Origin: Candidatus Bathyarchaeia archaeon
Lineage (GTDB): Archaea > Thermoproteota > Bathyarchaeia > Bathyarchaeales > Bathycorpusculaceae
DNA length: 64,000 bases
NCBI GenBank assembly: GCA_038883655.1
Contig: JAVZLQ010000002.1
Coordinates: 185,625 to 249,624 of the forward strand
Direction: 5' to 3'
Of this stretch, positions 41,256 to 56,936 are shown piece after piece. The notes below the pieces were generated by a model. That model was given only the letters and a program-made list of their open reading frames with translations, searched no databases and had not been told where the DNA came from. Position 1 is the first letter of the stretch. Every line of letters begins with the position of its first letter. The translations under genes were made by a program, and so were the position numbers.

Positions 41256-41297
41256 TTCCCCTTTTCCCTTCCTGTATTTTTGTTGTACACGGATACA

Positions 41298-41319
41298 ATA
41301 TGTCTATTTTTAGACATAT
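41298..41319. promoter_or_regulatory. perfect inverted repeat, candidate PadR operator
   Basis: ATATGTCTA-TTTT-TAGACATAT between divergent padR genes. Confidence 0.6.
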
Positions 41320-41441
41320 CTCAAGACTTTATAGAGCCTAAACAAAAATATAAACGTTCATGCTTCAACCAAACATAAAAAAGCATAACGCGTGCATACC
41401 GCAATATTCTAAACCCTACATAAATCTAAATAAGCCGAAAC

Positions 41442-41807
41442 ATGAACAAGTCCAAAACAGAACAACAAATGGAAAGTGGAAAATTGACAGAAACCATCAA
41501 AAAAGAAATTGTTCAACGTATAACCAGAAACCTACTAGACATACAAATACTAAGACTATTAAGCGCAGAGCCAATGTGGGGATATAAGATAAAAAAGGAA
41601 GTGGAAGCAAAATTTGGAGTAAGATTAAGGCATGGGGCGCTCTACCCACTTCTAAACAACATGGAAAAGAAAAATCTAATAAAAAGCAGAGAGCAACAAC
41701 AAGGAGGAAGGACAAGAAAGGTATATGTAATGACAGAAAGGGGAAGAACGCTTATAGAAGCATACGACACGGTCCTAAAAGAACAAATACAGAAAAAGGA
41801 CATATAA
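41442..41807 (+). CDS. PadR-family regulator
   Basis: PMWGYKI, HGALYPLL, RTRKVYVMTERG. Confidence 0.92.
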   Translation: MNKSKTEQQMESGKLTETIKKEIVQRITRNLLDIQILRLLSAEPMWGYKIKKEVEAKFGVRLRHGALYPLLNNMEKKNLIKSREQQQGGRTRKVYVMTERGRTLIEAYDTVLKEQIQKKDI

Positions 41808-41811
41808 TTAA

Positions 41812-42843
41812 ATGAGAGAAATGACGAAGAAAAATGTAATCAGAGAAAAAGGGGGAAAACTTGCCGAACAAGCCCTAATTCTTTTTAGAGAAAGAGGAAG
41901 AGAAGCCTTTGAAATGGCAAAAGAAGCAATACTAAAAGAAAAAATAAGACATAAACCCGTTTGCGACGCCCTAAGCTACTTTATCCAAGAAAACTGGCGC
42001 GCCTTTCAACATCCAGCACTGATCTCTTTAGCATGCGAAGCCGTTAAGGGAAAACCCAAAGAAACAACAGCTGTAGGTGCTGCCATGATTCTTCTAGCTG
42101 GAGCTGCAGATTTGCATGACGACATAATAGACCAGTCAACAACAAAGGGTTCAAGAGAAACTGTTTTCGGAAAGTTTGGCAAGGACCTCGCACTTCTAGT
42201 CGGAGACGCCTTAATATTCAAGGGGCTGATGATGCTGCATGAAGCTTGCGAAAAATTTCCCGTAGAAAAGAGACAGGCAATATTAAACATAACAAGGGAA
42301 GCGTTCTTCGAATTGGGAAGCGCCGAAGCAAATGAAGCGAAATTTAAGGGAAACTTGAACATTACGCCCGAAGAATATTGGAACATTGTCCAAATGAAAG
42401 CTTCAATACCCAGCGCATACGCAAAGATAGGCGCAATTATTGGAAACGGAAGTCAAAGACAAATAGAAGTGCTCGGCAATTATGGAAAAACTTTAGGAGT
42501 ACTAACAACGCTAAGGGATGATTTCATAGATATTTTCGAACCAGAAGAATTGCAAAACAGATTTAAGAACGAGTGCCTGCCGCTACCAGTACTCTACGTC
42601 ATTCAAGACAAGAAGGCAAAAAGAGAAATTATTACAAAACTGGAGCGAGGAAAAATTACAGAAGAAGAAACCTACACAATAGTGGAGCTGGTATGGAACA
42701 GGAAACCAGTCCAGGAACTAATAAAACAAATGTATAAAATGGCAAGAAATGCAAAGCAATCGCTTAAATTTGTTAAGAACTTAATGGTATACAAAGAACT
42801 AATGCTAATAATCGACGCCGCTATAGAGGATATACAGCAGTAA
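41812..42843 (+). CDS. polyprenyl-diphosphate synthase-like protein (class I isoprenoid fold, atypical motifs)
   Basis: LHDDIID, ALLVGD, MKAS, LRDDFID, LPLPV. Confidence 0.85.
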   Translation: MREMTKKNVIREKGGKLAEQALILFRERGREAFEMAKEAILKEKIRHKPVCDALSYFIQENWRAFQHPALISLACEAVKGKPKETTAVGAAMILLAGAADLHDDIIDQSTTKGSRETVFGKFGKDLALLVGDALIFKGLMMLHEACEKFPVEKRQAILNITREAFFELGSAEANEAKFKGNLNITPEEYWNIVQMKASIPSAYAKIGAIIGNGSQRQIEVLGNYGKTLGVLTTLRDDFIDIFEPEELQNRFKNECLPLPVLYVIQDKKAKREIITKLERGKITEEETYTIVELVWNRKPVQELIKQMYKMARNAKQSLKFVKNLMVYKELMLIIDAAIEDIQQ

Positions 42844-42979
42844 GGCTAGATAGGCCATTCGAACCAGAATGTTACTCGTACAGGCTTTACTTTTTTCTTT
42901 TTCAAGTCCTTTCCCCTCGACAACTGTATTTATGTTCAACATTTAAGCTTAAAAAGCTTGCGATAACTGAACGCTGAAT

Positions 42980-44269
42980 ATGTTTTCTAAATACTTAAGG
43001 CTTATACTCTTCAAGCAGTTCAAAATATTTGAGTACTTAACAATGATCGACAGCGATTATTTAAAGAGAAAGCTGCTACTTTCAAGAGATAAAATAACGA
43101 GTTCAATCGTTATTGCAAACTCTGTTTTATGGTACGCATACGCTTTCAATCTTCTACGAAGAATTATAGTAACTTTAGGTTTAAACTATCACGAAATCCT
43201 CATATTCTTAATCACTAATTTTCTTGCGGCCGCTATTTTTGCTTTGTCGGGTGCAACGTTAATTAATGCAGTGTGCAGAAGAATCCCGTTTTTACTTGTA
43301 TGGTTAATTTTTGGAACGGTATCTTCGTTTATTCCAATACTAATAGACACCATGGTTAAAAATAATCTTCTTATCGTTTTTTTCCTTTTTGGGGCATCGT
43401 TTGGTTTTGGAATGCCCATTTCAATGGGATATTTTGCCGATTCCACAAATGTGGAAAATCGTTGCTTAACAGGAGGAGTAATATTTCTTGCCATCGGTTT
43501 TGGAGCTTTTTTGTTAGGAACAATAAATATGGCTGAAATAAGCATTCAGTTTATGATATTGACACTTTTAAGAATTAGTGGCTTGATTGCATTTATTATC
43601 CTTAGACCACGAGAAAATTTCCCCAGAAATAAGAGTCATTCTTATATCTTTATTCTTGGTCAGCGTTCGTTCTTGCTATATCTTATTCCATGGGTTATGT
43701 TTTGTCTTGTAAACCAAACGAGTGCACGAGTATTGTATCAGTTTTTTGGGGAAAGCTTCTTTACATTTTTAATGGCAACTGAACTTGCCTTGTCTGGACT
43801 TTTTGCGGTTGTTAGTGGCTTTTTCTGTGATAGGCTAGGGCGAAAGATTGTGGCTATGGTGGGGTTTGTTATGTTGGGTCTTGGCTACGCAATGTTGAGC
43901 GTTTTTCCTGATAATGCGATAAGTTGGTACTTTTACACGGTTGCTGATGGTGTTGCGTGGGGCATTTTCTACTCGGTTTTCTTTGCGGCAGTATGGGGAG
44001 ACCTTGCGCATGGAAGTCCCAGCGAAAAGTATTATGCAATTGGCGGACTGCCATATCTTCTTTCAAACTTCCTGCGGTTGGTAGCGGGAAGGTATATTGC
44101 TGAAACAGTTGCTATACACACTGTTTTTTCTTTGGCGAGTTTCTTCCTCTTTTTAGCTGTTTTGCCTTTAATGTTCGCCCCTGAAACTTTGCCTGAAAAG
44201 CACATTAAGGAAAGGGAACTTAAAATTTACATTGAAAAGGCCAAGAGAATCAGGGAAAAATACGCTTAA
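42980..44269 (+). CDS. MFS transporter-like membrane protein
   Basis: About 12 TM; CDRLGRK; APETLPEK. Confidence 0.82.
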   Translation: MFSKYLRLILFKQFKIFEYLTMIDSDYLKRKLLLSRDKITSSIVIANSVLWYAYAFNLLRRIIVTLGLNYHEILIFLITNFLAAAIFALSGATLINAVCRRIPFLLVWLIFGTVSSFIPILIDTMVKNNLLIVFFLFGASFGFGMPISMGYFADSTNVENRCLTGGVIFLAIGFGAFLLGTINMAEISIQFMILTLLRISGLIAFIILRPRENFPRNKSHSYIFILGQRSFLLYLIPWVMFCLVNQTSARVLYQFFGESFFTFLMATELALSGLFAVVSGFFCDRLGRKIVAMVGFVMLGLGYAMLSVFPDNAISWYFYTVADGVAWGIFYSVFFAAVWGDLAHGSPSEKYYAIGGLPYLLSNFLRLVAGRYIAETVAIHTVFSLASFFLFLAVLPLMFAPETLPEKHIKERELKIYIEKAKRIREKYA

Positions 44270-44305
44270 GAACCAGTTAGTATTAGCTCTTTTTGAGGAG
44301 GACAA

Positions 44306-45427
44306 ATGTTCTTTCACGTGATACTAACAAACGAGTGCACTCTTCAATGTAGGTATTGCTTTGGCGAGGCTTTTGAGGATTTTGAGGAAAGTTTTTCAGG
44401 TTTTAATGTTGACTACTCTTTGCCTAAAAGAATAGCGTATAACATTGGGATTTTGGACGATTTTTGTAAGAAGGACTTGGATTGTGTTTTAATTTTTTAT
44501 GGTGGCGAGCCTCTTTTGTGCGTTGATGATATCAAGCGAATAATGGACAGCGTGCATGCTAAGCATTTTCTAATTCAGACTAATGGTTTGCTCTTGGACC
44601 GTTTGGAGCCAGAGTACGTTAATCGTTTGCACACGATTCTCGTTTCTGTCGATGGTGACGAAGCGTTAACAGATTTTTATAGAGGAGCTGGCACTTTTAG
44701 GCGCATAATCGAAAATCTGCGGTTTGTTAGGCGGAATGGTTTTGGCGGCGAAATCATTGCGCGCATGACCGTCATGGAGCAAACCGACATTTATAAGCAG
44801 GTTAAGTGGCTTGTTGAGAACAGCGAGTTTCCATTTTCTTCTATACATTGGCAGTTAAACGCTGGATTCTGGAGCGACTTTGAAAGAAGAGATTTTAAGC
44901 GTTGGGTTGAGCAAAGCTATAATCCTGGAATACGTAGGCTTGTCCGCTTCTGGGTTGATTATATGGAGCGGTTTGGCGTTGTTTTAAGGCTTTACCCCCT
45001 TCTTGGAATTGCACAATCCATGCTAAATGGTGAGACGCAAAGTCTATTACGTTGCGGTGGCGGATGGATAAACTACGCAATTCAAACAGACGGACATATC
45101 ATTCCTTGTCCCACAATGTGGGGAATGAAAGACTATTATTTGGGGCACATAAGCAACATAGACCCTCTAAGTTTGCGTAAGCTTTTCGTCGGCGAACCAT
45201 GCACAAAATGCGAAATCTACGGTTTATGCGGCGGAAGATGCCTCTATGCAAACATAACGAAACGTTGGAAAGAAGACTCCTACAAAGAGGTTTGCAAGAC
45301 TGTTCGAAACTTGATGGACGCAGTTTCAATGGAAATCCCAAGAATAAATAGTCTAATAAGGAATGGGCGGGTAAAACTTGAAGATTTCGATTTCATGAAA
45401 TACAACGGATGTGAAATAATCCCATAA
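44306..45427 (+). CDS. radical SAM/SPASM protein (archaeal TIGR04084-like); integration target
   Basis: TNECTLQCRYC, YGGEPL, QTNG, SPASM CGGG..PCP..CTKC..CGGRC; ends GCEIIP. Confidence 0.9.
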   Translation: MFFHVILTNECTLQCRYCFGEAFEDFEESFSGFNVDYSLPKRIAYNIGILDDFCKKDLDCVLIFYGGEPLLCVDDIKRIMDSVHAKHFLIQTNGLLLDRLEPEYVNRLHTILVSVDGDEALTDFYRGAGTFRRIIENLRFVRRNGFGGEIIARMTVMEQTDIYKQVKWLVENSEFPFSSIHWQLNAGFWSDFERRDFKRWVEQSYNPGIRRLVRFWVDYMERFGVVLRLYPLLGIAQSMLNGETQSLLRCGGGWINYAIQTDGHIIPCPTMWGMKDYYLGHISNIDPLSLRKLFVGEPCTKCEIYGLCGGRCLYANITKRWKEDSYKEVCKTVRNLMDAVSMEIPRINSLIRNGRVKLEDFDFMKYNGCEIIP

Positions 45428-45435
45428 ATTTTTAT
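45407..45435 (+). repeat. attL direct repeat
   Basis: GGATGTGAAATAATCCCATAAATTTTTAT, 26/29 identical to 53348-53376. Confidence 0.9.
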
Positions 45436-45450
45436 TGCATCCATTATACG

Positions 45451-46587
45451 TTACTTCCTTTTTCTGAAATATGCAAGTCCATCCTTTTCCATGACAAACT
45501 CGAATCCTTCCTCAAGCAATGCGATTATGTCTTCTTTTGTTTCTGCTACTTTAACGTGATACTCATCTGGCTCCATAGTTCTGAACATTGCCTTTTCAAT
45601 GTGGATGTAAACTTGTGTGCTTTGAAGGTTTTTGTGTCCAAGATATTCTTTAACGTGATAGATGTCTTTGGTTTGATGGTAAAGCATTGTGCCTTTCCAA
45701 TGGCGAAACGTGTGGAAAGTTATTTGCATAAGCCTTGGATTTCCAAGTTTTCTTGCAGCCCGTTTCCTTTGAACGTAAAAGCATGCCCTCATATGGTTAG
45801 CATCTGCAAATATGCGATCTTCAGTTTTGGGAAGGTTCTTAAGCATTTCAACCGCTTTAACTGATATTGGAAGCATCCTTGAATAGCTTCCTTTTTCACC
45901 TTTAACTCTGACTGTTCTCTGTTCAAAATCCACGTCTGTCCATTTCAAATTTGATATTTCCCCACATCTTGCCCCTGTGTCCTTAAGCAATTGAAGATAA
46001 CAAGCCATCTTTTTGCCTACACTTGCAATTAAACAGTCAAGCTCCTGCTCTGTTGGAATAAAGGGTATTTCAGGCTCTCCGCAATATGAAGGTTTAACCC
46101 ATGCCACGCCAAGATATTCAAACCACTTGTCTAGAATTGTAGCTATGTTTCTCTTTGTGTTTGCTGCAAATTCTTTTTTGGAAAGCCAAGCCTTACACTC
46201 TTCAGGGTCATTGAGGTTCACATTTTCTCTGAACATTCTCATCAAAGTTTTACGGTAGTTAGCTATTGTTCCCTGTGTTCTTCCGTTTCTTTCAAGCTGC
46301 CATAAAAGTTCAACGATTTTGCCTTTAACGTCTTGCTGTGCTGATTCTGTGGCTCCCGCTTCCCGCTTTTCGCCTATTGCCTTTTCAACTTCCATCAAGA
46401 TTGCCTCTTGATGTGCATCGCTTAACCTATGTGTCAGACAATTCTTAAAAGACTTTTCACTAAACCGATAACCACAGTTTCTACATAGCCACCTTTGAAC
46501 TGTGCTGCCATCACTTAAATAACGTAAACCGTCTTTATAGAGAAGCTGAGAACCACATTCAGGACAGCACAGCTCAGCCATCAGCAT
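45451..46587 (-). CDS. tyrosine integrase with N-terminal Zn ribbon
   Basis: CPECGS..YKDG..QRWLCRNCG; catalytic TGARCGE, HTFRH, LGH, TQVY. Confidence 0.95.
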   Translation of the reverse strand: MLMAELCCPECGSQLLYKDGLRYLSDGSTVQRWLCRNCGYRFSEKSFKNCLTHRLSDAHQEAILMEVEKAIGEKREAGATESAQQDVKGKIVELLWQLERNGRTQGTIANYRKTLMRMFRENVNLNDPEECKAWLSKKEFAANTKRNIATILDKWFEYLGVAWVKPSYCGEPEIPFIPTEQELDCLIASVGKKMACYLQLLKDTGARCGEISNLKWTDVDFEQRTVRVKGEKGSYSRMLPISVKAVEMLKNLPKTEDRIFADANHMRACFYVQRKRAARKLGNPRLMQITFHTFRHWKGTMLYHQTKDIYHVKEYLGHKNLQSTQVYIHIEKAMFRTMEPDEYHVKVAETKEDIIALLEEGFEFVMEKDGLAYFRKRK

Positions 46588-46766
46588 TTTTCCCTTCTAA
46601 GCCTTTTCATGTTGCATTTTCTGCATAACCTTGCGGGTTTGTTGCCTCTCCTCGGTAAAGGTTTACCGCAGAATGAGCCATCAGTGAACCCACTCCCATA
46701 ATCCATAACTGTTAAGGAAAACTTTGCCTTCGTTTCGCCAAACTTCAAAAACCTTCTCTGCTTCAT
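46581..46766 (-). CDS. possible small Cys-containing basic protein (start uncertain)
   Basis: FCGKPL...LCRKCNMKRLRREKC bridging the ATPase and integrase genes. Confidence 0.3.
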   Translation of the reverse strand: MKQRRFLKFGETKAKFSLTVMDYGSGFTDGSFCGKPLPRRGNKPARLCRKCNMKRLRREKC

Positions 46767-48237
46767 CTGGGCTGCATTGGCGTATTTCTTTTATGAGTTT
46801 AACTGCTTGGTGCGTGTAGAACGGCTGCTTAAGCTGGTTTCGTAAAGTTTCATAAACTTGTGGAATGGAGATATTTTGTTTTTCACTTGGGGGTAAAAAT
46901 TCTCCCACTTCAACCTGAGAAGATTTTTTTACCCCACCCTCGAAAACAAAATATCTCGGCACACGCCTATCCTGTTCATCCGGCTTCTCTATGAGCAGCC
47001 CCACGGAAGTTAAAGTTTTCAAAATTTTACGGGCAGAATCATAGCCTAACGGTTTATGAAATTCTTTGTAATAGGCGCTTTGAAACTCTAACAGGGTTAA
47101 GCCGTCATTATTAAAGTATGGTTTAAGTTTAACATAAACATTGAACAGTTCAGGCGACAAGCCCATCTCGTTAGCTTCACTTATTCCATAATAAAGTTTG
47201 AAGCCCGCTGCAATGTCTTCCTCGTTCACTATTATTGTGTCGCCTAAACGTTGCCTATGCATGAAATTCAGTAAAGCATGGGCTTTGATAATGGCTAAAA
47301 GTCTGCTGATGTCCCTCTGATGCCTCGGAATCAAAAAGTTATGATCTTCTATAAACTGCATGTAAATTTGGCTACGCATTTCCTCTGGAATTTGAACATA
47401 CTTTATCCGTGCAGCTTTAACCATTTCTACACGGGCTTTAAGAAAACGCCTCTGTGGGTCTTCGTTCATTTTTTTGTTGAAAGCTTCCCTATCAGATTCC
47501 CTTTCAATTCTCAAAGCTATGGTTTCTTTTAGCTTCTCTTGGCTGATTTCTGGAGAGAGTAATAACAGTCGTGTCTTCTCCTGGTCTGCAATGCTAAACT
47601 TGGCTGAACAGAACAATACTGTAGGATAACCGCGAATGACAATTGTTTTAGTTCTTAAACCAGCCTTTTCCCTTTTATCGGTTATTTTTAACACAATTTC
47701 CCTATCATCATGGCTTAAAAGTGAACGCAACCGCTGTAAAAGCAAATCATGGGGCATATCCAAAAAAATGAGAATTTTCTGATGCAGGTCCACCATGTAG
47801 TAAGAGCCTTTAAGCAGTTCCTTCCATCTACGAATTTCACGTTTGTAAACTGATTCCACATCATCCTTTGAAACTTCACCTTTTTCAATCTCCAAATCTT
47901 CTTTAATGGCTGCTTTGTTAGGTTTCATTTCAAAGTTTACGGGTATGCCTTCCTTGTGCATTAAAACGCCGTAATCATGAAAGAAAGCTGTGGGCGAAGC
48001 ATAACCCAGTCTGATAATGTCTGCCGGCGGAAAATACCAGCTTAACTCTAAGGGAATGTAGCTTTTCCCTGTGCTGCTTTCAGCCAAAAAGCCAATGTTA
48101 ATTTGGTCTTCTTCAGTATATGTGAGCAACATTGCTAAGAATGTTATGGCTTTGTTTTCGTCATCATGCTTAACTGTGCTTCCCAAAATCTGAATCAAAT
48201 CGTCAATGGTTAAAGTTTTATTTACATCTTCAGCCAA
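46681..48237 (-). CDS. P-loop ATPase, putative replicative helicase with C-terminal winged helix
   Basis: Walker A AESSTGKS, Walker B ILIFLD, R-finger-like KTRL, PRHQRD, ARKILKTLTSVGLL. Confidence 0.75.
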   Translation of the reverse strand: MAEDVNKTLTIDDLIQILGSTVKHDDENKAITFLAMLLTYTEEDQINIGFLAESSTGKSYIPLELSWYFPPADIIRLGYASPTAFFHDYGVLMHKEGIPVNFEMKPNKAAIKEDLEIEKGEVSKDDVESVYKREIRRWKELLKGSYYMVDLHQKILIFLDMPHDLLLQRLRSLLSHDDREIVLKITDKREKAGLRTKTIVIRGYPTVLFCSAKFSIADQEKTRLLLLSPEISQEKLKETIALRIERESDREAFNKKMNEDPQRRFLKARVEMVKAARIKYVQIPEEMRSQIYMQFIEDHNFLIPRHQRDISRLLAIIKAHALLNFMHRQRLGDTIIVNEEDIAAGFKLYYGISEANEMGLSPELFNVYVKLKPYFNNDGLTLLEFQSAYYKEFHKPLGYDSARKILKTLTSVGLLIEKPDEQDRRVPRYFVFEGGVKKSSQVEVGEFLPPSEKQNISIPQVYETLRNQLKQPFYTHQAVKLIKEIRQCSPDEAEKVFEVWRNEGKVFLNSYGLWEWVH

Positions 48238-48260
48238 AAAATGAAGCCTCCGTTTAGTTT

Positions 48261-48347
48261 GGCTGGGGGGTAAGGAAAGCTGACGTATGTTCGGTTCATC
48301 GAGAGGAGAGAACTTACTTGCGTCAGCCCATCTTCCCCCTCTAGCCC
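48261..48347 (-). ncRNA. long GC-rich hairpin in the leader between the RHH gene and the ATPase gene
   Basis: Nested complementary arms GGCT/AGCC, GGGGG/CCCCC, GCTGACG/CGTCAGC, GTTC/GAAC. Confidence 0.5.
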
Positions 48348-48494
48348 CTAACCAGCATTTTTGCTGAGAAACTCTTCCAAAGCTGCACGAATTACTTGAC
48401 TTAATTTTCGATATTTGCCTTCCTTGATTAACTCTTTAATTCTTTCTTTGCATTCTTTTGGAAGTCTGAAAGCGATTCTTTCGTTATGTTTCAT
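48348..48494 (-). CDS. CopG-like ribbon-helix-helix repressor (48 aa, not in ORF track)
   Basis: MKHNERIAFRLPKECKERIKELIKEGKYRKLSQVIRAALEEFLSKNAG; GGAG upstream. Confidence 0.85.
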   Translation of the reverse strand: MKHNERIAFRLPKECKERIKELIKEGKYRKLSQVIRAALEEFLSKNAG

Positions 48495-48507
48495 TTTTTA
48501 CATCTCC

Positions 48508-48536
48508 TTGTAGAACAAGTTTATATTGTAGAACAA
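48508..48536. promoter_or_regulatory. two identical operators flanking a TATA-like box
   Basis: TTGTAGAACAA (48508-48518) and TTGTAGAACAA (48526-48536) around GTTTATA. Confidence 0.7.
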
Positions 48537-48593
48537 TCTATACTTTTACACCCAAGTTCAATGTCCCTAACCTCATGGAAAAGTGATGGAAAA

Positions 48594-49043
48594 ATGTCCG
48601 TGTATAAGGGTTTGGATGTCCCTCAGCTCGTAAAAAAATACAGAGAAAAATATCCCGAACTCGATAGAGATTTACTGAGAAAACTCATCCGATTAGAAGC
48701 CAAAATTACAAACCCAAGCCAACTTAAAAAGCTCGACAGATATCTGGCTAAGGAATTTAAAGGCAAACAGTCAGATAAGCCCTTCAATTTTAGCAGAATT
48801 CAACAAATCTATGAAAAAATCATAGACTTACGCCTCACGCCCCAACTTCGCCTCCGCCAAGACGACGGAACCTTTTATTATTCCCACAATTTCCACGAAA
48901 TACTCAGCGGTCTAGCTATTCTCAGGGAAATGAGTCCATCCTTAAGAAGCATCATTCCAGAAAACTTAGGGCGCCTACCAAGTGAAGAAATAGACAAAGT
49001 GATTGGAAAAATTGGATGCTTTATTTATTCTTTAAAAGAGTGA
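48594..49043 (+). CDS. hypothetical protein (element cargo)
   Basis: The only + strand ORF in the element; start 48594 or 48561. Confidence 0.6.
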   Translation: MSVYKGLDVPQLVKKYREKYPELDRDLLRKLIRLEAKITNPSQLKKLDRYLAKEFKGKQSDKPFNFSRIQQIYEKIIDLRLTPQLRLRQDDGTFYYSHNFHEILSGLAILREMSPSLRSIIPENLGRLPSEEIDKVIGKIGCFIYSLKE

Positions 49044-49099
49044 TACTGGAAAACTTAGCGTTAATGTTTTTCCTTTTTCAACTTCGGACAAAACGTAGC

Positions 49100-50866
49100 T
49101 CAGTCCTCGTCCCGTTTTGCTTTTGCTATGGTTGCGAACACTACTATAGCCAAAGCGAAAAGCGCTAGGGTGTACGTTAACTGCAGCCATCCAATGTACC
49201 ATAATATTATGGCGGTTATCCAAGCTGCGAACATGCCTATTTCTGCGGTGGCGTAGCTGAAAACGCCTAGCACCATCAACACGATGAAGACGGCTACTAT
49301 TTGGCTGAACGGTATTGGACTGTCAGGCCATAGGCTGTCTAGGCTTTGCCATGGGTTGGTTGTTTTGGGCGGCGCTGGCAACGTTAACGTCCAAGTGTTT
49401 GCTTCGCTGTCCACAACTTGCATGATGTAGCTTGTAGCGTTGTCCGCGTTGTTCCAGTTTAAAGTGTCCACCGCGCCTGAAAGGGTGCTGTTAAACGTGT
49501 AATCCGTCTGCCACGTTTGCCCGCTTCTGTGTTTGATTTCGTAGTATACCCATGTGGCTGTTTGGTTTGGGTTGCAGTATGTGGCGGTTATGAAGGTGGC
49601 GTTTACCCGTGAAGCATTGCATGTCGGAATCAAGGTTGTAGGCGCAGGGGGAAACATGGCGGGTGTTAAAACAATGTTGTATTCTCTGTCTGTCGGTTTA
49701 ATCGTGTATGCGCCTAGGGTTGCAGTTCCCAAGTCCGTGATTACGCGTAGAGTGTAGGTTCTGCCTATGATTAAGTAGAAGCTTATTTGGTAGGCGCTTT
49801 GAACGTTCACCCGTTCGATGACGCGTGTCTGCCCAGCTATTGCCTGTGACACTTCAAGGTAACCCCACTTTATGCCCGCCAAATCTAGAATGTTAAACGC
49901 GAAGATGTCTGCCCACTCGTTGGTTATGTCTGGAACGTAAAGCCAAAACTCTTCAAAAGTATAGTCTGCTCTGGGCGTTATGGTGCGGCTTGTGTTCAAA
50001 TAGAAGCTTGAAGCGTTCCATGTTATGCTTAAAACTTGATTTTCAAACTCCACCGTGTACGTGTCCGCTGTGCCGTCTGAACCGTTAAACGTGTACTCGT
50101 AATAGCCTTCGTGGGCTACTTCCACTGTTGCGTTTACGGCTTGGTTGGCTACTGCTCCACTTTCGCGGTACGGCCCATGCAGAATGTAGCGGTAACCCTC
50201 AGTTTCGTAGGAAACGTAAAGTTTAGGAGCGTAATCCTCACCCTGCTCTGCAGCGTAGACATTTACATATTCGTTACCTGTCGGCAGCACACCATCTATG
50301 TCTCTGCCTGAACGTAGACAAAGTTTAGTGTAGCCATCCACATTTATCCAGCTTAACCCGTCACTGTTTAACGTGATATTCCAGTAGCCAGAGCCAGTGA
50401 TTTCAGCGGTGCTTCTGCTTCCGCCATTGCCGCTGTAATAAGCATAATAGTAATCGCCACTTTGAAGCGGTATATGCGGGTAAGTAGGCATCCCACTTTG
50501 GACAGTGACGTTGAAGTCAACATCTGAATGGTCATAGTACACGTACAATGAGAGAATAGCGGATGTTACGTTTGCATTGTCTGGTATTATGCTTGTTTCA
50601 AAATAGAGATAACTTCTGTAATAATAGTACACTTCTAATGTGGGAATAAAACGTTGTCCAATGAGTAAATTTGCGGTTGCTGTCCAATATTCTGTGAAGT
50701 TGGGTGCAGTTCGTATTCGGTTATAGCCGTATCCGTCGTATGCTTGGCTTGTGAAGGTACGCGTTACACTTATGGTTACGGCTTCTGCACATTTAAATTG
50801 GAAATTTGAAAACACCATGCCTACAAGGCAAAGCAGCAGCAACAGCAGGCGGATTAAACGCTTCAT
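49100..50866 (-). CDS. large surface protein: signal peptide, DNRLRE-like beta domain, C-terminal multi-TM anchor
   Basis: LLLLLCLVG signal; RSYLYFETSIIPDNANVTSAILSLY...PKLYVSY; many sequons; about 3 C-terminal TMs. Confidence 0.8.
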   Translation of the reverse strand: MKRLIRLLLLLLCLVGMVFSNFQFKCAEAVTISVTRTFTSQAYDGYGYNRIRTAPNFTEYWTATANLLIGQRFIPTLEVYYYYRSYLYFETSIIPDNANVTSAILSLYVYYDHSDVDFNVTVQSGMPTYPHIPLQSGDYYYAYYSGNGGSRSTAEITGSGYWNITLNSDGLSWINVDGYTKLCLRSGRDIDGVLPTGNEYVNVYAAEQGEDYAPKLYVSYETEGYRYILHGPYRESGAVANQAVNATVEVAHEGYYEYTFNGSDGTADTYTVEFENQVLSITWNASSFYLNTSRTITPRADYTFEEFWLYVPDITNEWADIFAFNILDLAGIKWGYLEVSQAIAGQTRVIERVNVQSAYQISFYLIIGRTYTLRVITDLGTATLGAYTIKPTDREYNIVLTPAMFPPAPTTLIPTCNASRVNATFITATYCNPNQTATWVYYEIKHRSGQTWQTDYTFNSTLSGAVDTLNWNNADNATSYIMQVVDSEANTWTLTLPAPPKTTNPWQSLDSLWPDSPIPFSQIVAVFIVLMVLGVFSYATAEIGMFAAWITAIILWYIGWLQLTYTLALFALAIVVFATIAKAKRDED

Positions 50867-51033
50867 TATTTCTCCTCCTTCTCCATGATGATATGTTGGT
50901 TGTCAACCCACATGGCGACAACATCACCCTTTTTTATGTTGAGGTATTCGCAGATTTCTTTCGGAATTGTCACTTTCAAGCTTTTGCCAACCAACACGAC
51001 GCTTACTTTAAATTTTACAGGCAAAGTTTGCAC
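50866..51033 (-). CDS. AbrB/MazE/SpoVT-type DNA-binding protein (55 aa, not in ORF track)
   Basis: VGKSLKVTIPKEICEYLNIKKGDVV; TAATG overlap with the surface-protein gene. Confidence 0.85.
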   Translation of the reverse strand: MQTLPVKFKVSVVLVGKSLKVTIPKEICEYLNIKKGDVVAMWVDNQHIIMEKEEK

Positions 51034-51231
51034 CTGAATCACCAATATATCTTTGGAATATTCTTAAATATAAGTATATCCTTTTAATACTGCTTGAGAT
51101 ATCCCAAGAATAACCCCATTCAAATTTATGAGAAATTGTATGGATGGGTTAAAAGATACGAGAGAACCGATTTAACTTCGCCAACGGTTAGCGAAGTCAT
51201 GAAATATTCTCAGCAAAAGTTTGCGCAGTTT

Positions 51232-51777
51232 TCAACCATTTTCCAAAACCTTTGAAGCTTCACGCAACAATAAAGCCGTTGCCCTCTTAAAACGTGGATA
51301 AAGAAGCTGGGAAGCCGTAAGATATTCTCTGAATAGGCCGTCGTTTTCGCCTTCACAGTTCAAAGCTTCAGTTTTAGGCTTATCCGCTTTATCGCCTTCC
51401 AACTTTTTCAATTGTCTATAAACCTGATGTGGTTTAAGATTCAATTCTCGAGCTATAGCCCTATGGCCTAAACCCTTAAGCCTTAACGCTTTCAACTTCT
51501 CGATTAACTCGCTATTCCAAACGAAAGGCTTAGGCTTAAACTGTTCTGCAAACGTAGGCGTAATAGCCCCTACAGTTTCGCCTTGACTATTACTGTTTGC
51601 CTTCTTCAAGAAAAAGAAAAGCCTTCCATTATAAGACTGCTGAAAAACTTTAACGCCTTCCGCCTTAAGCTGTTCACTCCACTCGGGTTTAAAAGCTGAA
51701 TGCGGAATCAAAAGGCAAGGGCCGAAGTCAGTCATTTCCTCTGGAAAACTTTCGCTTAGGATTTCGTATAAACCCAT
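51232..51777 (-). CDS. HTH-containing protein
   Basis: LRLKGLGHRAIARELNLKPHQVYRQL. Confidence 0.75.
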   Translation of the reverse strand: MGLYEILSESFPEEMTDFGPCLLIPHSAFKPEWSEQLKAEGVKVFQQSYNGRLFFFLKKANSNSQGETVGAITPTFAEQFKPKPFVWNSELIEKLKALRLKGLGHRAIARELNLKPHQVYRQLKKLEGDKADKPKTEALNCEGENDGLFREYLTASQLLYPRFKRATALLLREASKVLENG

Positions 51778-52036
51778 GTTGCCCCTAACAAATGAATGTG
51801 CAGTTTCAAATTTAAACTTTAACATTTATGTTTAGATATGCTTTGAGCATATGCGGTATATATTTATGTTAATTAACGAAACCCTAAAATAAACCATTAT
51901 AAAGGTTCTTTTCCCACAATATATTATAAAACTAATTTATCCTCTGATAAATCTATTCTGTGAAAAGTTTTTGAAAAAGAAGCTCAATTTAACTTTCTTT
52001 TTCTTACTAATATATTTAAGTTAAAGTTTGAAACGT

Positions 52037-52885
52037 TCATGAAGCTAAACGCTTGAAGATTCTTTTAAATTCTACCCGCAATTCTTCTTCTGAAGGCTCT
52101 GTATAAATGGTTGTGGTTTCTAACCGTTTATGCCTCAGCACACTTTTGAGGCGTAAAAGTGAGCCTCTGTTCTCAAGCCAGATGTGAGCGAAAGCATGGC
52201 GTAGTTTATGAGGCGTAATGCGGTAAGGCTTCTTTAAAACGCCTTCCGTGTAGCGGTAAAACCACTTCAGAAAAGTTTTGTAGCTCATAGGCAAAATCCG
52301 TCCTTCATGATTAGCGGTTTCATTCCGCAAATGAACATAAAACCGTTTACTTATCGGATTAAGCGGAATGCTTACAGGCCTATCGTTCAGGCTCATTCCC
52401 TTAGGATAATACTTTTCACCTTGCCTTCTCCGAAGCGTTATAGTGTTCTTTTCAACGTCTATATCTTCCCAATAGAGGCCCAGGACTTCGCTTACACGTA
52501 AACCGTTAAAGGCCATAAGGCTAACAGCAAACTTGTAGCTGGTTTCATAACACGCCTCGATAAGCCTCATTATTTCCTCAGAGGTTAAATCCACTCGGAA
52601 TTGGCTGAAGTCAGGCTTAACCTCACGTAGCAAAGTTTTCAGAAAACTTGTATCGTAACCCATGAATTTGAGCAAGGCTGAAAGGAATCGTTTAGCCTCA
52701 GCCATGCTGTTAGCACTTTCAAAACTGTAAACCCATTCTTTAAGTTTCATAGGTGAAGCCTTCTCAAGCGTTAAGCCGTTTTGAATTAGAAACTTCTCAA
52801 GGCTATTGGCTAAGCTGAAATAGGTTTTCCGAGTGTTCTCGCTTTTTCCCATGCAGAATTTTTGTGCAGATTCCAATATGCTCAT
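52037..52885 (-). CDS. second tyrosine recombinase (Xer-like)
   Basis: SENTRKTY, NGLRVSEV, YPKG, PHKLRHAFA, LRH, TTIY. Confidence 0.92.
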   Translation of the reverse strand: MSILESAQKFCMGKSENTRKTYFSLANSLEKFLIQNGLTLEKASPMKLKEWVYSFESANSMAEAKRFLSALLKFMGYDTSFLKTLLREVKPDFSQFRVDLTSEEIMRLIEACYETSYKFAVSLMAFNGLRVSEVLGLYWEDIDVEKNTITLRRRQGEKYYPKGMSLNDRPVSIPLNPISKRFYVHLRNETANHEGRILPMSYKTFLKWFYRYTEGVLKKPYRITPHKLRHAFAHIWLENRGSLLRLKSVLRHKRLETTTIYTEPSEEELRVEFKRIFKRLAS

Positions 52886-52956
52886 ATGCTCACCTAATAA
52901 TGTCTAATGAATCTAACAAAAGTGAAGCGGAAAGGCTAGAGCGGGTAAGCATAAAG

Positions 52957-53130
52957 TCACCGCCTCGCAATTACAATTATAATTAATAACGCTATGAGGA
53001 CAAGCGATAAGAAGCCTAGAACAAACGTTGAAGCGAAGCTGGAGTTTAACAGGTAAAGTGCAGGAATCAAACCGCACAAGCACAACGCAAAAAGAATCAA
53101 ACTTAAGAGGCCCTTTTCGCTATCGGACAT
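52957..53130 (-). CDS. small two-helix hydrophobic protein
   Basis: MSDSEKGLLSLILFALCLCGLIPALYLL..FVLGFLSLVLIALLIIIVIARR. Confidence 0.65.
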   Translation of the reverse strand: MSDSEKGLLSLILFALCLCGLIPALYLLNSSFASTFVLGFLSLVLIALLIIIVIARR

Positions 53131-53278
53131 AATCAACCCTCTTCTTACGAATATGCTCCTCAAACTCTTTTTCTCGCCTAAGCTCTTCCAAATCAGCCTT
53201 CAACAATTTTAGAATGAGGAGTTCGCGTTCTTTTTCAATTTCGTTAAGTTTAACCCTCTTTCTTCTCTTTTTACTCAT
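53120..53278 (-). CDS. small basic coiled-coil protein (52 aa, not in ORF track)
   Basis: MSKKRRKRVKLNEIEKERELLILKLLKADLEELRREKEFEEHIRKKRVDYVR; GAGGT upstream; overlaps the next gene. Confidence 0.65.
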   Translation of the reverse strand: MSKKRRKRVKLNEIEKERELLILKLLKADLEELRREKEFEEHIRKKRVDYVR

Positions 53279-53347
53279 AGCTTATGAACCTCACAAAAGC
53301 GGATAATAAAAAAAGGGGAGTGTGCGGGAGAAATCTCCCTTGATTTT

Positions 53348-53376
53348 GGATGTGAAATAATTCCATGAGTTTTTAT
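53348..53376 (+). repeat. attR direct repeat
   Basis: GGATGTGAAATAATTCCATGAGTTTTTAT; encodes GCEIIP*. Confidence 0.9.
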
Positions 53377-53639
53377 ACAAACCCTTTGCTTGGAAAACGT
53401 CTGGCACTTTTAAGCATAGCTGAGCAAAATTTTCTTATCAATTGCCGTCCGAGTAACTCTGAGATTTCATCTGTCAATCAATCTAATGCCTTCTCATCAT
53501 CCGGCAACAAAATTATGAAGCGACAGAAATAAAAATGTTCTCTAAAGCGCCACATGTATTCTGAATATGGATTTTGAATTCATAAGTTAGTTATATGCTC
53601 CATGCCTATTCTTGTGCGTAAAAAGGTGGAGGAAACTCA

Positions 53640-53822
53640 TTGAAGCAAGACTTAACATCAAAGCAAAGGAAAGATTTGGAAGCTAAGATGGCTAAGGCTC
53701 TTAAAGAAAACATTAAGGGACTTTCGGCGGAATTGCAAAAAATATTGTTAGATGACATGGTTACGGCTTTCCAAAATAGAATAAACGTGTTAATGCGAGT
53801 GCAGAGGAAAAGGAGCTACTAA
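53640..53822 (+). CDS. small conserved hypothetical protein
   Basis: GGAGG RBS; helical LSAELQKILLDDMVTAFQNR. Confidence 0.65.
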   Translation: MKQDLTSKQRKDLEAKMAKALKENIKGLSAELQKILLDDMVTAFQNRINVLMRVQRKRSY

Positions 53823-53905
53823 CGCAGAGTAAATAGGAATAAGACGTAGTTTGAATCCATAAAAGCTTTATATAAAGAGGTTGAAAATATCGCCAAGAGG
53901 TTTGG

Positions 53906-54202
53906 ATGATGAGGCGTTCCAAACTCGAGATGTATATAGACATACTTAAAGTGTTAGCCCATCGTGGCCCATTAAAACTGACGCATATAATGTATAAGGC
54001 TAACGTGAACTGTAGTGTGCTTAAGGAGTACTTGGACTTTTTGATTAAACAAAACCTAATCGAGGAAAGGACTGTTGGCAAAAGAAGAGTTGTTTATGCG
54101 ATAACGCAGAAGGGCATAACGGTGCTCAAATACTTCAGAGAACTCAAGCAGGTGTTGCCAATAGTCGAAGAAGCCAGAAACAAGGCGCTGGTGCCATATT
54201 AA
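53906..54202 (+). CDS. archaeal winged-HTH regulator
   Basis: RRSKLEMYIDIL..THIMYKANVN..YAITQKG. Confidence 0.9.
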   Translation: MMRRSKLEMYIDILKVLAHRGPLKLTHIMYKANVNCSVLKEYLDFLIKQNLIEERTVGKRRVVYAITQKGITVLKYFRELKQVLPIVEEARNKALVPY

Positions 54203-54523
54203 ATTCCAAACTTTCTATAACAAAAATCATTTCTAATAATATTTCAAACATCGAAATACATTTTTTATTTCTCTGAATCTTTTCATTTCTACGATGTGCC
54301 ATGTTAGAGGAGTTAACGATATTCGCCGCACAGTACACTGCGGCTTTATTCATCTTTATGTTGTTATTCATCTTGCTTATGGGCGCCTTTTGTTCAAGAA
54401 CTGGTTTTTGTTGTAAGTAGTTTGTGTGTGTTTCGTGAATAAAGATGAGTGTTTCGTAAGACTTAATAAAGTCTCTGAGCTTCTACCATACTGTACAAGT
54501 GTAATACACAATGGGGAAAAGAA

Positions 54524-54898
54524 GTGGCAAAAGAGGAAGCATTAGGCAAAAAGCCTCTACAGATTCTTGAAAAAATTAAGGAAAACCTTGAAAAGCTAAA
54601 TGAGAAAATGGAAATAATAATCGAACTGCAGAAGCGTGAAAGAAAAGAGTTTCAACCTTTGCCCGAAGCGCCGTTGGATGTTATGACGTTGCTTTCAATG
54701 CCGGATCACCTTAGGAAGACGGCGATGACTGTTTGTAGGCTTGGAAGAGCTACTGCAGATGAGATAGCCCAGCAGACCCGAAGGGCTAGGGCTGTTGAAA
54801 GCGCGTATTTGAATCAGCTTGTTATTATGGGGTATTTGAAGAAGGAGCGTAAGGGACGTAAAGCCTACTTTTACATTGACAGGGAAGGGCAAGGGTGA
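54524..54898 (+). CDS. coiled-coil + winged-HTH protein
   Basis: ATADEIAQQTRRARAVESAYLNQLVIMGYL. Confidence 0.8.
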   Translation: MAKEEALGKKPLQILEKIKENLEKLNEKMEIIIELQKRERKEFQPLPEAPLDVMTLLSMPDHLRKTAMTVCRLGRATADEIAQQTRRARAVESAYLNQLVIMGYLKKERKGRKAYFYIDREGQG

Positions 54899-55680
54899 TT
54901 TGTATGGGCAAGGTAATTGCTATTCACTCCTACAAGGGTGGAACTGGAAAGACAATAATATCAATAAACTTGGCGGCAACACTTGCCAGACGCGGCAAAA
55001 AGGTTTGCCTTCTAGACCTCGACTTTCGAGCCCCGAGCATTGTAACGCTTCTTAAAGTTGAGAATGTTAATTATTGGATGAACGATTACTTGAATGGCAC
55101 TTGTGAAATTGACAAGGTTTTGGTGGATTTGAGCGACAGAATCAAAAATAATGGTAAGTTTTTCGTTGGTTTTGCCAACCCTGCAACAGAAGCAATTAGG
55201 GACATGACCGCGAAGGACAGGAAGTGGGAGATGCGCGCTTTAGGAAGACTCTTGTCTCTCAGAAACTCGCTTTTAAATGATAGGGGATTTGACTACATAA
55301 TTTTTGATACCAGCCCAGGATTACAGTATTCCTCAATAAACGCGATTGTAAGCGCTGATGTTATTATTGTAGCAACAACATTTGATAGGTCTGATGTTGA
55401 TGGTACAAAGCGTATGCTCAAGGAACTTTACGAGTTGTTTGAAAAGAAAACTGAAATTGTCCTTAACAAAGTTTTGAATGACATCGCGTTAAAGGGTGGA
55501 AAAGAGCTCCAATCCAGAATTAAGGATGTTTATCAAGCACCACTTTTGGGCGTAATTCCATGTTTCTGCGATATATTGAAGGGTGAAGGACACGTGATAT
55601 TTGTCCAAGAGAAAACTGAGCACCCATTTACAAGGATTCTGGAAGGTATAGCGGACAAAATTGATGGTGTTTTGATTTAG
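54895..55680 (+). CDS. MinD/ParA-family ATPase
   Basis: SYKGGTGKT, LDLD, IFDTSPG, VLNK. Confidence 0.9.
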   Translation: MICMGKVIAIHSYKGGTGKTIISINLAATLARRGKKVCLLDLDFRAPSIVTLLKVENVNYWMNDYLNGTCEIDKVLVDLSDRIKNNGKFFVGFANPATEAIRDMTAKDRKWEMRALGRLLSLRNSLLNDRGFDYIIFDTSPGLQYSSINAIVSADVIIVATTFDRSDVDGTKRMLKELYELFEKKTEIVLNKVLNDIALKGGKELQSRIKDVYQAPLLGVIPCFCDILKGEGHVIFVQEKTEHPFTRILEGIADKIDGVLI

Positions 55681-55802
55681 CTGCCACCGTTTGCTATTTT
55701 GTTTATCAACTGATGTATTTTGCAGTTTCTGCATCTCTCATAGTCTTTTTCATCACATTGCTTGCAAATTATTCTGTTGAGTTCCTTAATTTCCGAGTTC
55801 AT
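55677..55802 (-). CDS. Cys4 microprotein (41 aa, not in ORF track)
   Basis: MNSEIKELNRIICKQCDEKDYERCRNCKIHQLINKIANGGS; GAGGG upstream. Confidence 0.6.
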   Translation of the reverse strand: MNSEIKELNRIICKQCDEKDYERCRNCKIHQLINKIANGGS

Positions 55803-55930
55803 TGATGTTTACCCTCTTCATGTTGACTTTGCCTTGGTTGGGTAATATGGGCTATTCCGCATTAGTAATATTTCATACACGGACTTGTGCGATAATCTTA
55901 TATTACTTGTCCGTAAACGTTTCACTTTGT

Positions 55931-56284
55931 GTGGTGCAAGATTTGAACAAAAATGTTGCCTTAACATCCCTTGCATGGGGATTGTTTTTCGTCATGATTG
56001 GCGTCAGCTTAGCCATGACCGGTTATGGAATAACTTTTGAAGTTATGTTGCCTTACATCGCTGTTGGGACGGGTATAATTCTAATCGGATTAAGCGTTGC
56101 CAGAACTGGGCTGGGAATGGAACTAAACAAGTTCAGCTTGTTCATAGGCGTATTAGCCTTTATCCTTGGCGGTTTGGCTGCGACGGGCTACCTGCAAACG
56201 TTGCCATGGTATGCCATCGTAATAATACTTATGGGCTTGTTTATAATTGCGGAAGCCGTTCGCGCCCTAACAAAGTCAAAATGA
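55931..56284 (+). CDS. four-TM membrane protein (start approximate)
   Basis: Hydrophobic helices; the annotated N-terminus from 55802 overlaps an intergenic/promoter region. Confidence 0.65.
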   Translation: MVQDLNKNVALTSLAWGLFFVMIGVSLAMTGYGITFEVMLPYIAVGTGIILIGLSVARTGLGMELNKFSLFIGVLAFILGGLAATGYLQTLPWYAIVIILMGLFIIAEAVRALTKSK

Positions 56285-56304
56285 AAATTGGAGACTAACT
56301 GTTA

Positions 56305-56934
56305 TTGGATAGGTCGGCAATAGTCCTCGCTGGAGGAGTTTCCAGCAGATTCGGAAAGGATAAGGGGTTAATGCCGCTGGCAAATAGACCCCTCATAAGG
56401 TATGTTTTAGATGCTGTAGAAGGGGTTGTCGAGGAAGAGATTGTTGTTGTCAGCTCAAAAATTCAACTTGAAAACTACATAAAAGTGCTCGGTTCTGATG
56501 TTAGGCTGGTGATTGATGAAGGACAGATGCGTACTCCACTTCTTGGGGCATTAACTGGCTTAAAAATGGCATGCGGCGAATATGCCATACTGCTTCCATG
56601 CGACACACCATTCATAACAAAAGAAATAGTTTCACTGCTCTTTGAGCTTTGTATAAACAAAAATGCAGCCATTCCACGTTGGCCGAACGGTTACATAGAA
56701 CCACTGCAAGCAGTTTATCGTGTCAAACCAGCTTTTGATGCTGCTGAAAGGGCTTTGGTTGCTGGCGGTTTGAATATGCGGTCAATGATAAATGCTTTGC
56801 GTGAAGTCCGTTATGTTTCAACTCTTGTTTTGCAGCAGTTGGATTCAGAGCTTAAGACATTCTTTAATGTGAATACTCCGTTGGATTTAAAAAGGGCTGA
56901 GCTTATGCTTAAACGCGGAAAAGGCAAGTTATAA
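56305..56934 (+). CDS. mobA: molybdenum/tungsten cofactor guanylyltransferase
   Basis: IVLAGGVSSRFGKDKG, PCDTP, EPLQAVY, FNVNTP. Confidence 0.92.
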   Translation: MDRSAIVLAGGVSSRFGKDKGLMPLANRPLIRYVLDAVEGVVEEEIVVVSSKIQLENYIKVLGSDVRLVIDEGQMRTPLLGALTGLKMACGEYAILLPCDTPFITKEIVSLLFELCINKNAAIPRWPNGYIEPLQAVYRVKPAFDAAERALVAGGLNMRSMINALREVRYVSTLVLQQLDSELKTFFNVNTPLDLKRAELMLKRGKGKL

Positions 56935-56936
56935 GG

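Follow-up and report, generated by a model that had tools for sequence, protein, structure and literature searches.

How can a mobile element of about 8 kb enter the end of a protein-coding gene and leave the encoded protein as it was? The question is raised by a stretch of 64,000 nucleotides (nt) from a Candidatus Bathyarchaeia archaeon, referred to here as the window (GenBank assembly GCA_038883655.1, contig JAVZLQ010000002.1, positions 185,625–249,624; our G000:C2:185625-249624, from an assembly of 1.42 Mb in 19 contigs). Here a radical SAM/SPASM gene is followed by a convergent tyrosine integrase gene, which we call int1, and a near-copy of the end of the gene recurs 7941 bases further on. 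An integrative element of ~8 kb at this gene end had been proposed in an earlier, sequence-only reading, and the proposal is now borne out by a unit of 7,941 bp that is skipped by a joint from 45406 to 53348 in contigs from three metagenomes (X2–X4, see below). Our preferred explanation, to which we give a probability of about 0.9, is that 45421–53361 is an integrated mobile element that was placed by int1 at the end of the radical SAM gene and supplied it with a synonymous tail. The features at issue are listed here, with the left and right attachment sites given as attL and attR and amino acids as aa.

44306–45427, plus strand: radical SAM/SPASM protein of the TIGR04084 family, 373 aa, intact; the codons from 45421 on are element-derived.
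45407–45435, no strand: attL, a 29-nt repeat copy with its core at 45407–45420, the 14 letters of which fit both sides of the empty-site joint.
45421–53361, no strand: the integrated unit, 7,941 bp; the joint 45406→53348 skips 7941 bases and the boundary is ambiguous by the 14-nt core.
45451–46587, minus strand: int1, a tyrosine integrase of 378 aa, intact and converging on the target gene (PF00589, 2.1e-25).
52037–52885, minus strand: int2, a Xer-like tyrosine recombinase of 282 aa with a SAM-like N-terminal domain (PF00589, 5.7e-20).
53348–53376, no strand: attR, with its core at 53348–53361; 53348–53368 is the displaced native gene tail, now non-coding.

The two attachment sites, attL (GGATGTGAAATAATCCCATAAATTTTTAT) and attR (GGATGTGAAATAATTCCATGAGTTTTTAT), form a direct repeat of 29 nt with a spacing of 7941 (repeat family D4) in which 26/29 positions are identical (90%), and the first 14 nt of each copy make up a perfect core, GGATGTGAAATAAT. 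Read in frame, attL is GGA TGT GAA ATA ATC CCA TAA and attR is GGA TGT GAA ATA ATT CCA TGA G TTTTTAT, and the three mismatches are ATC/ATT (Ile), TAA/TGA (stop) and the base directly 3' of the stop. The earlier observations that both copies encode GCEIIP-stop around a 14-bp core, and that the differences within the coding part are synonymous, are therefore confirmed by the sequence. When 48001–60029 was shuffled 200 times, the gene end found at best a 29-mer with 22/29 identical positions, and 26/29 was attained in no shuffle (0/200). The gene-tail motif has only two occurrences in the whole 1.42-Mb genome, at attL and attR, and there is no tRNA gene in 40000–58000. The integrase lies 23 bp past the host stop as had been stated, with 45428–45450 separating the stop codons of the radical SAM gene and the convergent int1.

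The target protein scores 312.9 bits against TIGR04084 (cut-off 225), with the model matched end to end, to residue 373, and it has the family's SPASM domain at residues 250–323 and CTLQCRYC at the N-terminus. Its open reading frame (ORF) finishes in GCEIIP-stop, and an ending of the form (N/S)(G/S)CE(I/V)IP-stop is kept in 20/20 oriented loci of relatives. A relative of the protein is present in 35/41 genomes searched (that of the window included), and amongst 20 gene sequences the last 21 nt of the gene have a mean pairwise identity of 0.815 vs 0.671 gene-wide, ranking 19th of 1102 windows for conservation. The attachment site is thus set in a gene of wide occurrence, at one of the points where that gene is most conserved, and such placement follows the usual logic of tRNA targets.

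The evidence that decides whether the unit is an insertion comes from near-identical strains. Eight sequencing runs, labelled as hot springs metagenomes, were listed for 44800–54000, and seven of these contain some or all of it. The share of the words of this interval that is present is 0.92 in X1 (study P1), which is probably the sample of origin, and 0.21–0.33 in X2–X5 (study P2). When contigs assembled from X1–X4 (and not raw reads) were compared with 42000–57000 at 90% likeness, X1 was found to have the occupied form, with contigs that run unbroken across attL (45187–46342) and attR (52944–53469) with no other letters. The empty form was found in X2, X3 and X4, in each of which one contig joins 45406 to 53348, skipping 7941 bases, with 14 letters that fit either side (X2, 403 nt, depth 20.2; X3, 346 nt, depth 23; X4, 458 nt, depth 6.76). 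These contigs consist of pieces starting at 45126, 45183 or 45071 and running to 45406, each followed by 53348–53469, with 0–1 other letters and none in 53348–53469, and host contigs near the site are also near-identical to the window (e.g., 42000–44515 with two other letters in X2).

In the empty site the gene ends ATT CCA TGA and continues straight into 53369 onward, so that the joint lies within the repeat as the sequence-only reading had anticipated. Two things follow from this. As the empty site carries ATT CCA TGA, the ATC CCA TAA of the window and the base following it were supplied by the element, and as the joint is within the 14-nt core, strand exchange took place within the core. 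In our judgement the joint is no assembly artefact, since a perfect repeat of 14 nt should be too short for an assembler to jump. The end repeats, the internal integrase and an empty site that joins in the repeat are together what the attL/attR model of an integrated element describes, and the empty-site contigs further show that, in the strain lineage of the window, the right flank adjoined the gene until the insertion.

The same joint would also be produced by an integrase-independent deletion across the 14-nt microhomology, which is indistinguishable in its product from site-specific excision, and in that case the empty form would not document a site that was unoccupied or had lost the element by excision. 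This we find hardly credible, because the depth of the empty site in X2 is 20.2 vs 21.7–22.1 for the host flanks (contig depths being values to treat with caution), making it the main form there and not a rare deletion, because the tail of the empty form is exactly that of attR, and because integrases of the family are found at this site again and again, which shows targeting, however this particular copy was lost. A second joint, 45434→53442 with 28 letters between, has shorter sides of 23–28 letters, which is below the guidance of 30, and was not used as evidence; another strain may have it as a variant of the empty site. We also noted several contigs in X2–X4 that match the gene tail up to 45431, or the sRNA-like element beyond attR (described below) from ~53427–53441, and then run into unrelated sequence. 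These loose ends imply that other strains or species of the same springs have other neighbours at the two places, and divergent neighbours at both fit a variable site.

We suggest that the element arrived at this arrangement in the following way. int1 would have recombined an attachment site of the element (attP), lying directly behind its own stop codon, with a host site (attB) at the end of the TIGR04084 radical SAM/SPASM gene, comprising its final codons, its stop and the T-run that follows, and strands would have been exchanged within the 14 nt of GGATGTGAAATAAT. In the gene as it now stands, all letters rightward of the core (C CCA TAA A TTTTTAT) would then be element DNA and the native tail (T CCA TGA G TTTTTAT) would have been displaced by 7.9 kb, to 53362–53376, leaving the protein unchanged and retaining the stop codon and T-run. 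It is presumably int1, and not int2, that performs the reaction, and the mimicry of the tail may be maintained by selection. Between integrations the element could replicate as a plasmid-like episome by means of its primase-helicase-type ATPase, and int2 might resolve multimers or serve another site. We take the insertion to be real and, apparently, recent.

The layout of the site agrees with such a reaction. In attL, GGATG (45407–45411) and CATCC (45438–45442) form an inverted pair that flanks the stop codon and a run of five T, and in most relatives this pair is GGATGC...GCATCC. The arm ...TGCATCC... is also present in G002, G007, G011, the G006 fragment and L070, all of them selected independently of any pattern. 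An arrangement of this kind is the expected layout of the two core binding sites of a tyrosine recombinase, and we therefore describe the pair as a putative int1 core site; in attB only the left half, in the Gly-Cys codons, is well kept. Oligo-T is the usual archaeal termination signal, and as the T-run after the stop is kept in both copies of the repeat, the element restores a likely terminator as well as the codons.

int1 combines an N-terminal four-Cys zinc ribbon (an IS1/IS1595-type Zn domain) with a catalytic domain whose residues R..HxxR..W..H..Y are kept in 15 aligned rows of the int1 family (TGAR, HTFRHW, LGH and the final Y). Both int1 and int2 belong to the tyrosine recombinase superfamily (PF00589) and are about 23–25% identical to each other (22.9% in one comparison). 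Neither is an archaeal XerA by the NF040815 cut-off of 220 bits, with scores of 113.4 bits for int1 and 101.7 bits for int2, and none of the seven tyrosine-recombinase matches in the same genome is above this cut-off. The best matches to int1 amongst deposited phages and plasmids are no more than 27.5% identical.

Related integrases at the same gene, which the sequence-only reading had suggested looking for, were found both in other genomes and in metagenomes. The records to which integrase relatives belong bear the title Candidatus Bathyarchaeia or Bathyarchaeota. In related genomes, 7/22 ends of the radical SAM gene are followed by an integrase, a remnant or a short scar and 15/22 by nothing of the kind; four of the 22 have an integrase or remnant detectable by tblastn, and three more have short arm footprints. 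The four comprise a full-length relative of int1 (57% identical) behind the tail of the gene in G006:C38, a 222-aa part of a relative (55%) in the same position in G013:C85, and remnants of 91 aa in G007:C6 and 50 aa in G013:C2, and the three are nucleotide footprints of the integrase-side arm after the gene tail in G002, G011 and G006:C52. L070 has a further int1 remnant, of 53 aa, beside the gene. We considered whether the gene fragments beside the integrases in G006:C38 and G013:C85 were long tails carried by attP, and rejected this; the fragments are 59/95 and 183/282 identical to the other copy in the bin and are located at contig ends, and most likely each is an attL junction belonging to another copy of the gene or to another strain.

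A scan of metagenomes with a degenerate motif for the arm matched 17 contigs, and in 17/17 the arm comes directly after the gene tail, with the upstream sequence reading on as the last codons of the gene; this count means that the arm was never seen elsewhere, and says nothing about how frequently the gene is occupied. The gene was confirmed by tblastn in 14/17 of these contigs, and in the other three the contig stops within 52 nt. Of the 17, eight have an int1-family gene at full length, two have one that is cut by the end of the locus, six have one reduced to 33–95 aa and one has none. No match lay outside the gene-tail context (0/17), all of the matches are of the attL type, and the motif had no match in IMG/VR. 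The only attR-like repeats found are in L090 and L101, which have a 3-kb remnant with such a repeat, and this is preceded by a palindrome, GGAGA-CA-TCTCC, that is like the GGGAGA-AA-TCTCCC at 53326–53339 of the window.

This distribution also bears on which of the two recombinases made the insertion. int2, too, is an intact tyrosine recombinase, encoded towards the opposite end of the element; its region is covered at 90–95% likeness in the related elements of X2–X4, and it might have catalysed the insertion with int1 as a passenger or as part of an older element at the same place. It is int1-family genes, and not int2-family genes, that are found at the gene tail, however, where the matches to int2 are weak cross-matches on int1 genes (22–27%). 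The relatives of int1 that adjoin tRNA genes likewise have attP immediately behind the gene for the integrase, and on contig C5 of the window's genome a right-arm module like that of the element is paired with a different recombinase. We consider a role for int2 in the insertion very unlikely, and retain int1 as the probable enzyme.

More distant members of the family have other neighbours. Ten such relatives of int1 were identified in other Bathyarchaeia (36–52% identical), three of which directly precede a convergent tRNA gene (for Pro, Phe and Arg) at its 3' end; none of the ten is beside the radical SAM gene described here. L056 and L058, from different metagenome-assembled genomes, have integrases that are 47–58% identical to int1 followed by the same sequence of ~110 nt, which is neither a tRNA gene nor the gene tail described here and may represent a third target of the family, perhaps another protein-gene end. 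The genome of the window has paralogues as well: one of 42% identity at C2:120470-122038, apparently in two pieces, adjoins an intron-bearing tRNA-Pro(GGG) gene, and a further partial paralogue (48%) is at the start of contig C4.

It should be noted that a number of points weigh against our account. X2–X4 are all from one study and so constitute a single independent source for the empty site, and among the 15 joints listed of 32 (in contigs only) there was neither a circular attP junction nor an excision joint from X1. The species representatives G001, G002, G003, G007 and G011 also offer no empty site for comparison across species, as the homologue of 53426 onward is not beside the gene in these. 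The arm motif includes the last codons of the gene, which leaves only the sequence further upstream as independent in the 17/17 count. The ten integrases at the radical SAM gene fall into two groups when placed in a 16-row tree, and a single change is found in 46% of bootstrap trees, so that a single origin of the integrases at this site is neither shown nor excluded by the sequence comparison. The displaced tail in L090 and L101 is CCG GAA and its stop has been lost; evidently such a tail would drift once non-coding, and the identity of the displaced tail of the window to the empty-site allele argues for a recent insertion. Recombination by int1 at this locus is a predicted activity. Finally, the earlier claim had been that attP carries a replacement C-terminus selected to keep the host protein intact: the replacement itself stands, and selection we retain as a conjecture, since what is replaced is two codons and a stop and two synonymous differences are weak evidence of selection.

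What kind of element this is may be judged from its other genes, which are as follows.

46681–48237, minus strand: P-loop ATPase of the replication type with the Walker A motif ESSTGKS; a MarR-like winged helix near residues 380–430 is weak (E 0.013–0.5).
48348–48494, minus strand: ribbon-helix-helix (CopG-type) protein of 48 aa, just upstream of the ATPase gene (PF01402, 1.3e-05, 25.4 bits vs a cut-off of 20.5).
48486–49043, plus strand: ORF of 185 aa with no match in Pfam, PHROGs or PADLOC.
49100–50866, minus strand: membrane-anchored surface protein of 588 aa with an N-terminal hydrophobic leader and three C-terminal helices.
50866–51045, minus strand: AbrB/MazE-type (SpoVT-AbrB fold) DNA-binding protein of 59 aa (PF04014, 5.6e-07, 29.9 bits vs a cut-off of 24.7).
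51232–51825, minus strand: helix-turn-helix (HTH) protein of 197 aa, for which all HTH matches are below cut-off; a 68%-identical copy is on contig C5 of the same genome.
52890–53347, minus strand: right arm with overlapping small ORFs of 56, 68 and 52 aa and the palindrome GGGAGA-AA-TCTCCC at 53326–53339, just before the core.

The ATPase is part of a large family, with 1953 relatives at E <= 0.001 amongst 8000 candidates scored, mostly from Bathyarchaeia. Three of these relatives (P0212, P0213 and P0226; 56–58% identity) have an N-terminal Prim-Pol and/or PriCT-1 domain confirmed by Pfam; the protein in the window has the Walker A motif and winged helix, no primase domain and no Pfam match, and a PDB profile search of the family returned weak MarR matches only. 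Judging from these comparisons, the product of 46681–48237 is most likely a replication protein. The 3' part of its gene contains an inverted repeat (46868–46957) with 32-nt arms that are 81% complementary and 26 nt apart, which might be an origin or regulatory site, and an ORF for a zinc-ribbon-like protein of 61 aa (46581–46766) overlaps the gene near this repeat. PADLOC found no defence family among the ORFs of the element and only weak CasR-like HTH matches for the 197-aa protein, and PHROGs had no match for the ATPase, 185-aa or 588-aa proteins.

The 588-aa protein is predicted to have a jelly-roll domain (DNRLRE/CBM96-like) and further beta-sandwich domains (model pLDDT 89.1), and one of its 129 relatives has been named as DNRLRE domain-containing by NCBI. 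The local G+C of its gene is 0.47 vs ~0.40 for the surroundings. Depth is about zero over 49014–51017 in X2–X4 at 90% likeness, and the integrase, ATPase and right-arm regions are covered at 90–95%, a pattern that fits related elements with other cargo.

The surface protein also figures in a rival reading, in which the element is the provirus of an unrecognised lipid-containing archaeal virus of the pleomorphic or spindle type, with this protein as the spike and a two-helix membrane protein (52957–53163) as the coat; the integration itself would be unchanged. In favour of this, the protein has a leader, a beta-sandwich ectodomain and a C-terminal membrane anchor, its N-terminal domain recurs in 23 IMG/VR contigs, and the fold matches include phage structural and tail proteins. 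The size of 7.9 kb and the ATPase are, we presume, also in keeping with small archaeal viruses. Against it, the IMG/VR matches cover only residues ~60–220, the fold matches are to generic Ig/FN3 arrays and CBM96 with TM-scores of 0.1–0.3, and the near-absence of depth over the spike-like gene in the related elements of X2–X4 makes it look like variable cargo. The 68-aa ORF of the candidate coat overlaps that of 56 aa, and tblastn preferred neither frame. No virion hallmark gene was recognised, with no capsid or structural family in Pfam or PHROGs for the 9–10 element ORFs scanned, though unknown virion proteins may be among them, and none of 122 candidate stretches was confirmed for the ATPase family in IMG/VR. 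A provirus of unknown kind is accordingly a minority reading that we judge to be unlikely, and we describe the element as a cryptic, plasmid-like integrative element.

Parts of the right arm are found elsewhere in the genome of the window, where a second right-arm module at C5:9429-11297 has the HTH copy (68% at the amino acid level) and the small-ORF region with a different gene between them, for a recombinase-like protein of 215 aa. The right arm at 52890–53272 is 84.6% identical at the nucleotide level to C5:10918-11297, and C5:9748-10987 is 92.5% identical to G003:C4:125000-126250 vs 78–88% for the flanking chromosomal blocks. This likeness suggests another mobile relative shared between species.

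The sequence-only reading would have been undermined had the region been conserved core synteny, and this is not the case, since a search of 20 loci of relatives for the other element proteins gave none of them downstream of the gene (over a reach of up to 15 kb). The proteins of the right flank were likewise not found in these loci up to 15 kb past the gene. We compared 24057–45449 and 53426–64000 of the window with G003:C4:126483-184995 and with G007:C6, and in G003 the homologue of the right flank is inverted at 126483–144086 and the gene block is at 152309–171272. Some 2 kb past the gene block in G003 there begins a homologue of C2:99188-87428, which is 130 kb away in the contig of the window, and the order in G007:C6 is like that in G003, the right flank being inverted and upstream of the gene block. 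In this family, synteny therefore breaks at the 3' end of the gene. An inverted copy of the tail motif, as might account for an inversion made by the integrase, was found neither in the genome of the window nor in G003:C4:125000-184999.

Just beyond attR we observed a 66-nt element (53442–53507, minus strand) that is near base-for-base conserved in six genomes from three genera, with a variable middle, and which is the edge of the conserved right flank in 5/5 relatives compared. It is composed of a terminal stem, AUGAUGA, 12 nt, UUGA, a variable loop, GAUGAAA, 12 nt, a non-canonical end and a closing stem, in that order, and we take this to be how a C/D box sRNA is laid out. Rfam has no match for it, and an Rfam scan of 45000–55000 at E <= 1 was empty. 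The element is single-copy in the genome of the window, and the contig depth of 1600–2800 at 53470 suggests that many members of the community carry it.

A wider interpretation would bring these observations together by proposing that an integrase lineage from tRNA-targeting relatives became locked on a near-invariant radical SAM/SPASM gene end across the Bathyarchaeia, with elements that carry a mimic of this end, and that the site is a recurrent landing pad with decayed integrase scars and a break point for rearrangements, the element here possibly being the provirus of an unrecognised enveloped virus with the 588-aa protein as its spike. Taken as a whole, we hold this to be doubtful.

Gene ends are known as integration sites in Bacteria, where phage 21 and e14 integrate at the 3' end of icd in E. 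coli and bring a replacement for it. As in the window, attP is a near-copy of the gene end with silent differences and the host protein is left intact; the duplicated stretch is far longer in phage 21 and e14 than the 15 nt beyond the core found here, and the domain of life and the integrase lineage differ.

The closest published systems are those of the Thaumarchaeota. Krupovic et al. 2019 defined the sites of 68 thaumarchaeal elements and, in the part of the paper available to us, integration in 3'-distal portions of protein genes is described in which the element provides a new stop (PMC6563490). In NitEve-E2, the last 8 nt including the stop are replaced by element sequence with another stop, and the empty site is found in a sister species (PMC6563490). 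The locus described here is of this type, having a complete 373-aa ORF with its end and stop from the element, and it shares with these elements a tyrosine recombinase, a short direct repeat, a protein-gene 3' end with a replaced stop and an empty site in a close relative. It differs in that the host belongs to the Bathyarchaeia and in that TIGR04084 radical SAM/SPASM is not among the targets named in the available text of that paper. The replaced part is homologous and synonymous (26/29) here and 8 nt of non-homologous sequence in NitEve-E2, and, unlike the elements as presented in the same text, one integrase family is found here at the same gene in many genomes. We found no report of a radical SAM gene as an archaeal attB in the literature searched, though the supplementary target list of PMC6563490 could hold one. 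Archaeal attB sites within protein-coding genes are reported in the accessible portion of a review, none of them tested for recombination (PMC8371274), and the corresponding portion of a paper on Bathyarchaeia viruses mentions integrases and no attachment site (PMC10848311).

int1 cannot be placed in either of the archaeal integrase types outlined in the same portion of the review, which are the SSV1 type, with the motif R..KxxR..Y and attP in the integrase gene, and the pNOB8 type, with R..YxxR..Y and a gene that stays intact (PMC8371274). It is like the latter in that the integrase gene is whole after integration, and is set apart from it by the motif definition of the review as it has HTFRH and not YxxR. 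It is not of the 'suicidal' SSV1 type as described there, having HxxR and not KxxR, a single intact ORF and an attP outside the gene, and the N-terminal zinc ribbon is a further difference from both types. The tRNA-targeting relatives (L053, L057, L059 and C2:120606-122038 of the window's genome; 36–49% identical to int1) have the same domain layout and the same geometry, in which the integrase stop is followed by a few tens of bases and the convergent 3' end of the target, and differ in that the target is a tRNA gene (Pro, Phe or Arg) and not a protein gene.

No new mechanism or principle is involved, as this behaviour is already published for thaumarchaeal elements, and established ideas are unchanged by the finding. 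What it adds is an integrase family tied to one conserved protein-gene end, at a site that gathers scars and coincides with a synteny break. It also provides base-exact attL, attR and attB for an element of an abundant, mostly uncultured archaeal class whose mobile elements are little described. The attB is short, conserved across genera and recognised by an integrase family, and would be a starting point for building an integration vector, given a host that can be cultivated, and the contrast with the tRNA-targeting relatives makes this a compact case for target switching by integrases.

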